Virus record (IMG/VR): IMGVR_UViG_648276647_000004
Span: 1 to 43,461 of that record
Length of the DNA stretch: 43,461 nucleotides
Origin: a virus
Lineage: Duplodnaviria; Heunggongvirae; Uroviricota; Caudoviricetes
Strand: one strand, 5' to 3'
Part shown: positions 15,001 to 18,000 of the stretch, one piece after another
Position numbering within the stretch: position 1 is the stretch's first letter
Layout: every line of letters starts with the position of its first letter
Position numbers: made by a program

Positions 15001-18000
15001 AAAATGCTCTGTGTGCTCACTGGCTAACTGAGGCCGACGACGCGCTCAATTCTGAGTGGGTAAGCCACGGTGCAATCTGGAATAACCCACCGTACAGCAA
15101 TATCAGGCCGTGGGTGGAAAAAGCCGCTGAGCAGTGCATACAACAGCGCCAGACGGTAGTGATGCTTGTGCCAGAGGATATGTCTGTCGGATGGTTCAGC
15201 AAGGCTCTGGAGAGTGTCGACGAAGTTCGCATCATCACTGATGGACGGATTAATTTTATCGAACCATCGACAGGGCTGGAGAAGAAGGGAAACAGCAAAG
15301 GCTCCATGCTGCTGATTTGGCGACCGTTCATCAGTCCTCGACGGATGTTTACTACCGTATCCAAAGCGGCATTGATGGCGATCGGGCAGGGCGTCAGGAG
15401 GGCGGCATGAGACGACAGCGACGAAGTATCACCGACATCATCTGCGAAAACTGCAAATACCTTCCAACGAAACGCTCCAGAAATAAACGCAAGCCAATCC
15501 CAAAAGAATCTGACGTAAAAACCTTCAATTACACGGCTCACCTGTGGGATATCCGGTGGCTTAGAGAACGTGCGAGGAAAACAAGGTGATTGACCCAAAT
15601 CGAAGTTACGAACAAGGAAGTGTCGAGCGAGCTTTAACGTGCGCTAACTGCGGTCAGAAGCTGCATGTGCTGGAAGTTCACGTGTGTGAGCGTTGTATAT
15701 ATGAATGCTTAAATATGGTGGAACATAATGAGAAATATAAGCAACATAGACGAATTAAGAAATAAATTATCATATGATGATGTTTTAGGTGTACTTAGAT
15801 GGAAAGTGTCTCCTTCTAATAATGTTAAGGTTGGCAGTGTTGCTGGTTACATTAGGAGTGATGGTTATAGGATGTTAACTATCGATGGTGTAATTACTTA
15901 TGCTCACCACGTTATATGGATGATAAATAATGGTGAGATTCCATTAGGGTATAAAATTGATCATATAAATGGAGTAAGGTCAGATAATAGGCTATCTAAT
16001 CTTCGATTGGTTACACACCAACAGAATGCACAGAACCAAAAGAGAAAAATAACCAATTCGTCAGGAGTGACTGGAGTATATTTCAATAAAGAGAGATGCA
16101 AGTGGATTGCGAATATATGCGTAGATGGGCGCACCAAATATCTTGGAATATTTGCTAGCATCATTGACGCTATTGCAGAAAGGAAGAGGGCAGAAAAAGA
16201 ACTGGGTTTTCATGAAAACCATGGCAGACCATAACTGCGCAGAACTGATGAGCGATCCGAATAGCTCAATGTACGAGGAAGAAGACGATGGCTAAACCAG
16301 CGCGAAGACGATGTAAAAACGATGAATGTCGGGAATGGTTTCACCCTGCATTCGCTAATCAGTGGTGGTGCTCTCCAGAGTGTGGAACCAAGATAGCACT
16401 CGAACGACGAAGTAAAGAACGCGAAAAAGCGGAAAAAGCAGCAGAGAAGAAACGACGACGAGAGGAGCAGAAACAGAAAGATAAACTTAAGATTAGAAAA
16501 CTCGCCTTAAAGCCCCGCAGTTACTGGATTAAACAAGCCCAACAAGCCGTAAACGCCTTCATCAGAGAAAGAGACCGCGACTTACCATGTATCTCTTGCG
16601 GAACGCTCACGTCTGCTCAGTGGGATGCCGGACATTACCGGACAACTGCTGCGGCACCTCAACTCCGATTTGATGAACGCAATATTCACAAGCAATGCGT
16701 GGTGTGCAACCAGCACAAAAGCGGAAATCTCGTTCCGTATCGCGTCGAACTGATTAGCCGCATCGGGCAGGAAGCAGTAGACGAAATCGAATCAAACCAT
16801 AACCGCCATCGCTGGACTGTCGAAGAGTGCAGGGCCATCAAGGCGGAGTATCAGCAGAAACTCAAAGACCTGCGAAACAGCAGAAGTGAGGCCGCATGAC
16901 GTTCTCAGTAAAAACCATTCCAGATCACAAGGGAGAAGGCGCATGGGCATAAGAGAACTAAACCTCACCAAAGAACAGCACGAGTGGCTGAATGGCTGGC
17001 TTGAACTGTGGGGCGCATGGGTTTATTCAGGTCGTCTGGAAAAGCGCATGAGCAGCGTAATAGCTAAGTTCATGGAGAGCGTAGAGCCGGGAAGAGTTAT
17101 GACAAGGCCAATGTGTAATGATGATGATGGAATGTTGATTTCTCAGGTCGTCGATTCCGTCATGTACATTGACAAGAAAGCCTTTGGCATCCTCCTCAGC
17201 TACTACGCCCACGGCTCTTCCAAGCACGCCATTGCATCTTACTATCATCGCGTCGCAAGACCTCGCAAGATGTTATGCCGGGGCGGCGGGCGCATTCAAA
17301 AACCATCGCTCGCAACCTGTCGACGGGAAGTTGACGAAATCCTCAATGCCTCGTTGTTTATGATTTACCCGGTTCTGGATAGTGCGTTTAAAAACCGGAA
17401 ACGTGTAGAGAAAATTAAACATGTAGCATAGAACGTGTTGACATCATTGAGCAAATGAGCAACACTATTCGCATAAGCTGCCGTTAGTGACTCTTAAGTT
17501 GCAACGGTGGCTTTTTTTATTTGGGTCAGTCGTATAAAGGTCATTACGGAAGGCTGTTAACCTTCTTATCGTGGTTCGAGTCCACGCTGTCCCGCCAAAT
17601 ATGCTGGTTTAGCTCCAATGGTAGAGCAGTCGCCTTGTAAGCGAATGGGTAGCGGTTCAAGTCCGTTAACCAGCACCATAACTGAGCCGTAGCCACTGGC
17701 TATCATGAATTCATCAGTGATAGTTACGCTGCGGCCTTCTTTTTTTCCCCTTCCCAATATAAGAACTACGCAATCCGTTACTGGCGGAGGCGTTGCTATG
17801 AAATCAATGGACAAAATCTCAACTGGCATTGCCTACGGAACATCTGCTGGTAGTGCGGGATACTGGTTTTTGCAGTGGTTGGATCAGGTCAGTCCATCAC
17901 AGTGGGCTGCGATTGGGGTGCTTGGAAGCCTTGTGTTGGGCTTTCTCACCTATCTGACAAATCTGTACTTCAAAATCAGAGAAGACAGAAGAAAGGCTGC

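Follow-up and report, generated by a model that had tools for sequence, protein, structure and literature searches.

A probable free-standing HNH-AP2 homing endonuclease gene inserted into ninF of lambdoid phages

Homing endonucleases that combine an HNH nuclease with an AP2 DNA-binding domain are a described family, as set out in PMC10448857, which cites Magnani, Sjolander & Hake 2004 (Plant Cell, PMC520932). In the genes of this family carried by ICP1 and other phages ('IPA-HNH'; Barth et al. 2023, PMC10448857) an N-terminal HNH_3 domain is followed by a C-terminal AP2 domain. The same order is found in a 168-residue protein encoded by an insert in the gene ninF of a 43,461-nucleotide Caudoviricetes sequence (IMG/VR record IMGVR_UViG_648276647_000004, analysed over its full length and hereafter called the window), which is a lambdoid prophage or phage. 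The described genes (PMC10448857) and the ninF insert are further alike in their size (~160-190 aa), in being phage-borne, AT-rich and free-standing, and in being present or absent between related genomes. They differ in placement: most of the described genes, together with relatives of the 168-residue protein at ~50% identity, lie between genes and often beside essential ones, whereas the host of the ninF insert is a small gene that temperate lambdoid phages can do without. The ~50% relatives are free-standing genes between unrelated phage genes and not in ninF, and this intergenic placement is the usual habit of the HNH-AP2 family. We consider the insert to be a minimal free-standing homing endonuclease gene, i.e. 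a ribosome-binding site and an HNH-AP2 open reading frame (ORF) within the non-essential ninF, with a probability of about 0.8.

The split of a coding sequence by such a gene has precedents, including nrdA of Aeromonas phage Aeh1, which is split by mobE, and T4 genes 39/60. Likewise, nrdD of Felix O1-like phages is split by a free-standing homing endonuclease gene (PMC4837284). As in ninF, an endonuclease ORF lies inside the coding sequence without an intron or intein, and two gene pieces are left. However, the hosts in these cases are essential enzymes of which both pieces must work, whereas ninF is dispensable and its 19-codon 3' piece is probably just a remnant. A second kind of precedent is atp6 of Allomyces, where an endonuclease gene reportedly lies beside a replaced or duplicated 3' gene end, a finding ascribed to Paquin et al. 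in 1994. Endonuclease genes have also been described beside C-terminal duplications of atp6 and cob in fungal mitochondria (PMC6279837). The layout shared by these loci and ninF consists of a 5' gene part, a foreign C-terminus, an endonuclease ORF and the displaced native 3' end, which in ninF is kept downstream of the endonuclease ORF and out of frame (16235-16295). The fungal replacement is clearly homologous to the segment that it displaces; conversely, the foreign tail of the chimeric protein from the interrupted gene, here called NinF', shares with the native tail a cysteine and perhaps two or three residues (p ~0.03).

The closest structural relative of the 168-residue protein is I-HmuI (PDB 1u3e), an HNH homing endonuclease of Bacillus phage SPO1. 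I-HmuI differs in being encoded within a group I intron of a DNA polymerase gene and in its DNA-binding modules, which are other than AP2, and the identity between the two proteins is just 19%. No description of the insertion was found in the literature on ninF or the lambdoid nin region together with HNH or homing endonucleases. The ninF insert is a new example of a known mobile-element type, the pieces of which RefSeq already annotates automatically, and it reveals no new mechanism. It is, on the other hand, a clean and very compact natural case of an intron-less homing endonuclease gene within a coding sequence of temperate lambdoid phages, and it occurs in well-studied strains such as enteropathogenic Escherichia coli (EPEC) E2348/69. 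Phage lambda itself carries the empty target, and homing and co-conversion, as well as the cost of carrying the insert, could therefore be measured in the most tractable phage genetic system available.

Anatomy of the interrupted gene

The first-pass annotation of the window had described ninF as split, by an AT-rich insert of ~545 bp, into pieces lying in different frames, and alignment to the ninF genes of lambda and SfI bears this out. The 106 nt of the native 5' part are almost base-for-base those of lambda and SfI ninF and encode CANC...VCE, that is, three of the four zinc-ribbon cysteines. Identity to the two reference genes resumes at CTGCGCAGAACTG (16235) and continues up to the ninF stop codon (16293-16295), which overlaps the start of ninG. 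Between these pieces of 35 and 19 codons the insert measures 543 bp, and the coordinates first proposed were right to within 2 bp. The net gain at the occupied locus is 539 nt (710 versus 171), and the two ninF pieces are therefore out of frame, the 19 remnant codons (16236-16292) being offset by 650 nt, which equals 2 mod 3. The assignment to ninF is equally well borne out, with a Pfam NinF match of 6e-12 for the N-terminal ORF that begins at the GTG codon, and with NinE upstream and NinG downstream (Pfam).

Every empty allele retrieved reads GAGCACTGCTGCGCAG at the corresponding position. The GC content of the insert falls to 31.5-35% in 200-nt windows, against ~48-53% in the flanks. All of the insert that lies outside the 168-residue ORF is a 36-nt leader, which holds a Shine-Dalgarno-like motif (Table 1); in L035, a relative encoding a protein of 85% identity, AGGAG stands at the equivalent position. 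The insert is not a chance feature: 31 independent copies and 45 complete E. coli genomes have the same junctions.

Table 1. Positions of features at the occupied ninF locus, in window coordinates
Feature	Coordinates	Strand	Description
Native 5' part of ninF	15586..15691	+	GTG start, 35 codons and first base of codon 36; ends ...GTGTGTGAGC
Chimeric NinF' ORF	15586..15765	+	59 aa: 35 native residues and insert-encoded tail RCIYECLNMVEHNEKYKQHRRIKK
Insert	15692..16234	+	543 bp, 35% GC; replaces ACTG of the empty site; aligned to empty ninF alleles
Shine-Dalgarno-like GGTGG	15717..15721	+	6 nt 5' of the HNH ATG; read from the sequence, putative function
HNH-AP2 homing endonuclease gene (probable)	15728..16234	+	168 aa; TAA stop (16232-16234) is the last three insert bases
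HNH (His-Me finger) nuclease domain	15899..16033	+	residues 58-102
AP2-type DNA-binding domain	16061..16204	+	residues ~112-159; three beta-strands, then helix (structure model)
Displaced 3' remnant of ninF	16235..16295	+	CTGCGCAG..., 19 codons and stop; from alignment
ninG (rap)	16288..16899	+	downstream neighbour; Pfam NinG 1.5e-91

A locus of this kind could in principle harbour a self-splicing group I or group II intron or an intein that encloses the endonuclease ORF, so that an unbroken NinF is produced all the same. Phage group I introns are known to contain HNH ORFs, and if the 542 nt at 15692-16233 were precisely removed, ninF would be in frame and read VCEHCAELMS. However, a search of 15300-16600 on either strand returned no Rfam match at E<=10, the RNA fold had a z-score of -1.33 with 11/100 shuffles folding as well, and merely 36 nt of the insert are available outside the ORF. 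No catalytic RNA core (P3-P9) was thus detected, and the boundaries are likewise not those of a group I intron, in that the 5' exon ends in C and the putative intron in A where U and G are required. Nor does IMG/VR hold an empty allele with the single-TGC sequence expected from splicing. An intein, which requires an in-frame and stop-free insertion, is impossible because the frame differs between the ninF pieces and stop codons separate them, the NinF' and HNH ORFs both ending in stops. Splicing is on this evidence a very improbable explanation, and the earlier statement that the insert is not a group I intron stands.

AT-rich foreign DNA with sharp boundaries might also be left behind by a transposable element, resembling either an insertion sequence or a miniature inverted-repeat transposable element, or be the scar of an integrase-mediated cassette. 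A repeat scan found neither terminal inverted repeats nor a target-site duplication at the insert, no transposase or integrase is encoded in it, and one and the same site is used in all 47 of its genomic places in E. coli. An origin of this sort has next to no probability.

The 168-residue protein and the re-tailed NinF'

The insert had been predicted to encode an HNH endonuclease of 168 aa with an AP2-type domain. The nuclease was recovered outright by search with hidden Markov models (HMMs), the ORF matching Pfam HNH_3 at 1.2e-19 (70.1 bits) and PHROG_99 'HNH endonuclease' at 3.4e-70; none of the NCBIfam models matches either the HNH ORF or the NinF' ORF. Residues D78, H79, N91 and N100 align with D74, H75, N87 and N96 of I-HmuI, and this catalytic pattern (D78-H79...N91...N100), comprising the Asp-His pair and metal-binding Asn of an HNH_3 domain, is conserved across homologues. 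The AP2 part of the prediction divides according to method. The Pfam AP2 match is weak (E=0.024, 15.4 bits, under the cut-off of 33.3) and does not establish the domain by sequence, whereas the AP2 fold is confirmed structurally in a model of the protein with a pLDDT of 90.2, in which it forms the C-terminal DNA-binding domain. The HNH-AP2 architecture is confirmed in this combined sense.

Substitution patterns indicate that the protein is under purifying selection. Among copies of the insert 21 sites segregate, 13 synonymous and 8 non-synonymous (pN/pS ~0.16, the ratio of non-synonymous to synonymous polymorphism per site). The only diverged copy found, L035 (1-909, a Logan SRR25288770 metagenome contig), occupies the same ninF position and differs from the window gene with a ratio of non-synonymous to synonymous substitution rates (dN/dS) of 0.066 at dS 1.28. 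This divergence within the same place argues that the association with ninF is old and that the endonuclease has been maintained by selection. The left junction of L035 reads ...GTTTGTGAG followed by AAATGTATATATG. At the right junction L035 lacks 27 nt relative to the window, and its HNH ORF extends 8 codons further, into the ninF remnant, and stops where a YbcO-family gene begins. The 27-nt gap would be accounted for by deletion between two 8-bp copies of ATGGCAGA if the host allele was of the '...AELMADPNGQMLEEDDE' type; alleles of this type are represented among uninterrupted NinF proteins.

In its native form NinF is a zinc ribbon with four cysteines, CANC...VCEHC, and the insertion point falls between the third and fourth cysteines. 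The insert starts GT TGT, which at the junction gives the codons CGT TGT (R-C), and NinF' consequently reads VCE-R-C-IYECLNM... with an insert-encoded Cys37 that restores the fourth cysteine of the CxxC...CxxC pattern in a protein of nearly native length. In terms of the Pfam NinF core (PF05810, cut-off 27.5 bits), lambda NinF scores 47.5 bits, NinF' 45.7 bits over positions 1-25/25, and the 35 native residues alone 38.8 bits over positions 1-18 of 25. RefSeq likewise annotates the chimeric ORF as 'protein NinF'. The earlier description of a disrupted nin gene therefore holds as regards the split but is too strong as regards the product, in which R-C restores the zinc ribbon.

The tail was evaluated with an HMM built from 46 uninterrupted NinF proteins and 5,000 random tails of the insert's base composition, of which the real NinF' tail beats 96.5%, placing it in the top 3.5%. 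The replacement of HCCAELM by RCIYECL gains ~7 Pfam bits relative to the native residues alone, and the correspondence between the two amounts to the cysteine plus perhaps two or three more residues. At this place L035 has K-C-I-Y, and common descent accounts for the shared (R/K)CIY motif. An RCIYEC... tail occurs on no uninterrupted NinF of the protein collection, where every protein with this tail is a chimeric ORF. That NinF function is preserved by the re-tailing is plausible, if weakly supported by these comparisons. At the start of the HNH ORF, 38 nt (17 nt in L035) also belong to the NinF' ORF, and this overlap could limit translation of the endonuclease. A bolder proposal would be that the insert spares its host gene, with the 36-nt leader shaped both to keep a functional 59-aa NinF' and to let translation of NinF' throttle the endonuclease, the ribosome-binding site and start codon of which lie inside the NinF' ORF. 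We hold this to be a doubtful proposal. If true, the insertion would be near-neutral for the phage, and the long persistence in ninF (dS ~1.3, two known lineages) would be explained despite weak drive.

Distribution and spread of the insert

The ninE-ninF-ninG region is present in 2,192 of 5,426 complete E. coli genomes (4,766 places), and the insert was found at >=98% identity in 45 of these 2,192 genomes, EPEC E2348/69 among them. All of its 47 places in these genomes lie under a NinF annotation and none elsewhere, a strict site specificity. In IMG/VR, 29 prophage copies with 99-100% protein identity were found alongside at least 120 empty sites. The exact 168-aa protein is encoded on at least 1,000 contigs from E. 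coli, E. albertii and other Enterobacteriaceae, and Salmonella enterica is represented within the chimeric NinF' cluster. Both junctions are identical in the 31 copies examined, and the HNH ORF is intact in all complete copies examined except L032 (IMG/VR 3300023488_000025), a decayed copy in which a 1-nt insertion frameshifts it. A further decayed copy was seen in E. coli Eco_70239 (H123), where the best place matches only insert positions 144-543 and a second place exists; this suggests that the copy was split by another insertion. The claim that the insert is a mobile free-standing element is supported by this presence/absence polymorphism among related genomes, which concerns one fixed site in many mosaic backgrounds.

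Searches elsewhere were negative. The insert occurs in none of the 423 phage records holding a ninE-ninF-ninG stretch, and the insert alone has no match in 50,697 phage records (blastn, distant mode) or 72,556 plasmids. No relatives of the 168-residue protein were confirmed in GTDB species-representative genomes, and a second copy of the insert reported for strain FXCREC035 could not be located, the 20 kb around the first copy being free of it.

The backgrounds that carry the insert are diverse. It is found in both major ninF types, the lambda type (MIDQNRSYEQ...) and the P22 type (...SPSQSLQYQK...), and the 29 occupied alleles comprise 17 near-flank haplotypes and 12 upstream x 9 downstream gene-neighbourhood classes. 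The single-nucleotide polymorphisms (SNPs) that define these haplotypes lie as near as +33/+37 and -62 nt from the junctions, and flank SNPs segregate in similar proportions in the occupied alleles and in 120 empty alleles. Most occupied haplotypes also exist as empty sites, the haplotypes of the 3' remnant are the same as those in empty alleles, and no long co-conversion tract marking occupied alleles was found. The insert itself is nearly invariant across copies, with a nucleotide diversity (pi) of 0.005. Repeated entry of one element into different ninF alleles, accompanied by short co-conversion tracts, would be expected to leave such a pattern.

Under the homing explanation, the endonuclease gene would be transcribed with the nin operon upon prophage induction or infection. 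The AP2 domain would then recognise intact ninF around GTGTGTGAGCACTGCTGCGCAGAACTG in an insert-free phage or prophage sharing the cell, the presumed substrate being lambda-type ninF DNA spanning GTGTGTGAGCACTGCTGCGCAG, and the HNH domain would nick or cut this empty site. I-HmuI is a nickase. Recombinational repair off the occupied allele would transfer a copy of the 543 bp to this site. Alleles that already hold the insert should be immune to their own enzyme, because the presumed recognition sequence is split in them and 3-4 nt short. The cost of insertion to the phage would be small because ninF is dispensable and the R-C codons rebuild the fourth zinc ligand; the 59-aa NinF' may still work.

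Several observations weigh against this explanation. Lambdoid phages recombine freely, and plain homologous exchange in the conserved ninF flanks could give the same distribution without an endonuclease. A clean-excision ninF allele (single TGC) has 0 matches in IMG/VR. The insert is rare (~1-2% of ninF loci) and absent from all phage records, unlike a strongly driving element, and cleavage and homing by the 168-residue protein are activities that we infer. As for the re-tailed NinF', the 3.5% rank of its tail is essentially the chance of a cysteine at that position (2.9%), and the two tails showing cysteine restoration share ancestry.

Some of these points are also those on which a different history can be built, namely that illegitimate recombination once placed an HNH gene in ninF, and that this passenger or fossil has since been carried among lambdoid prophages solely by ordinary homologous recombination in the conserved flanks of ninF, the nuclease being kept for another benefit, e.g. 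cutting competing phages (marker or superinfection exclusion), and not for its own propagation. Lambdoid nin regions are indeed highly mosaic, with flanks beyond ~100 nt unrelated between copies, and other ninF fusions (P0185, P0143) break near the same point. The rarity of the insert and its absence from sequenced phage isolates are also in line with such a passenger, as is the coexistence of empty and occupied ninF copies in one chromosome, while purifying selection fits any useful nuclease. On the other hand, the presence of a near-identical 543-bp insert on 17 haplotypes needs crossovers within 33-62 nt, which are easier with break-induced repair, and homing is the sole documented role of the HNH-AP2 family. 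PADLOC identified no defence system and matched only generic 'homing endonuclease' models (1.9e-06, 3.7e-05). Exclusion through cutting a rival's ninF would, moreover, be mechanistically the same as homing. We accordingly regard the passenger history, although it is the main rival, as improbable and favour a homing endonuclease gene.

The uninterrupted NinF proteins vary at the insertion point (the equivalent of window 15686-15691), where VCSDCC, VCEYCC and VCEACC are common in place of VCEHCC. VCSDCC, which is carried by P0118, P0119, P0123, P0137, P0141, P0158, P0162, P0166 and P0170, is seen in none of the occupied alleles. The three variants may be cleavage-resistant targets. In addition, natural ninF fusions that break at or near the same point (~15680-15700 and beyond) were observed in P0185, P0143, P0130 and P0111, one example joining NinF residues 1-35 to a YbcO-type nuclease domain (...HVLEVHV followed by TGMKPDDL). 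In lambdoid phages, recombination junctions appear to have arisen repeatedly in this stretch of ninF.

Neighbouring genes and database annotation

The gene order in the window runs from integrase through early genes, a DnaB-type helicase, NinB, an adenine methyltransferase and NinE to NinF and NinG, followed by a Q-like gene, two tRNAs, lysis genes and then structural genes. The tRNAs, tRNA-Asn(GTT) at 17523-17597 (+) and tRNA-Thr(TGT) at 17603-17678 (+), separate the Q-like gene from the lysis genes, and the same pair is annotated in the related prophage of FXCREC035. A promoter scan found no sigma-70-like promoter in 15300-16600. Just left of the insertion junction, at 15676-15691 (+), GTTCAC-GTGT-GTGAGC forms a 6-bp hairpin in the ninF sequence, which is flagged as terminator-like solely because the insert supplies a T-rich run 3' of it; terminator-like matches such as this one occur at the rate expected by chance.

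A second and different HNH gene was observed in the prophage of E. coli SW07096 (L003 457-984), where a 175-aa 'HNH endonuclease signature motif' protein is encoded between ninB and the methyltransferase gene. This gene is absent from the window, in which NinB and the methyltransferase ORF abut (14446-15410). At least two different free-standing endonuclease genes seem to find a place in the nin region.

The locus also calls for a correction of database records: RefSeq enters two 'NinF' proteins here and, at times, a 'partial' HNH pseudogene. In E2348/69 (L002 1973-2122) and SW07096 (L003 2021-2074) the HNH gene is annotated by RefSeq/PGAP (the Prokaryotic Genome Annotation Pipeline) as a partial pseudogene ('missing C-terminus') next to two separate coding sequences for 'protein NinF', while the 168-codon ORF is in fact intact in both. 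This 'pseudogene' is an annotation artefact to which the overlapping NinF' and remnant ORFs give rise; other genomes annotate the full-length HNH protein WP_001244575.1. Fragments have been misnamed as well, and several partial members, in NCBI records, of the cluster to which the HNH protein of window 15728-16231 belongs (P0200, P0202-P0208) bear the name 'serine/threonine protein phosphatase, partial', probably carried over from a neighbouring nin-region gene.

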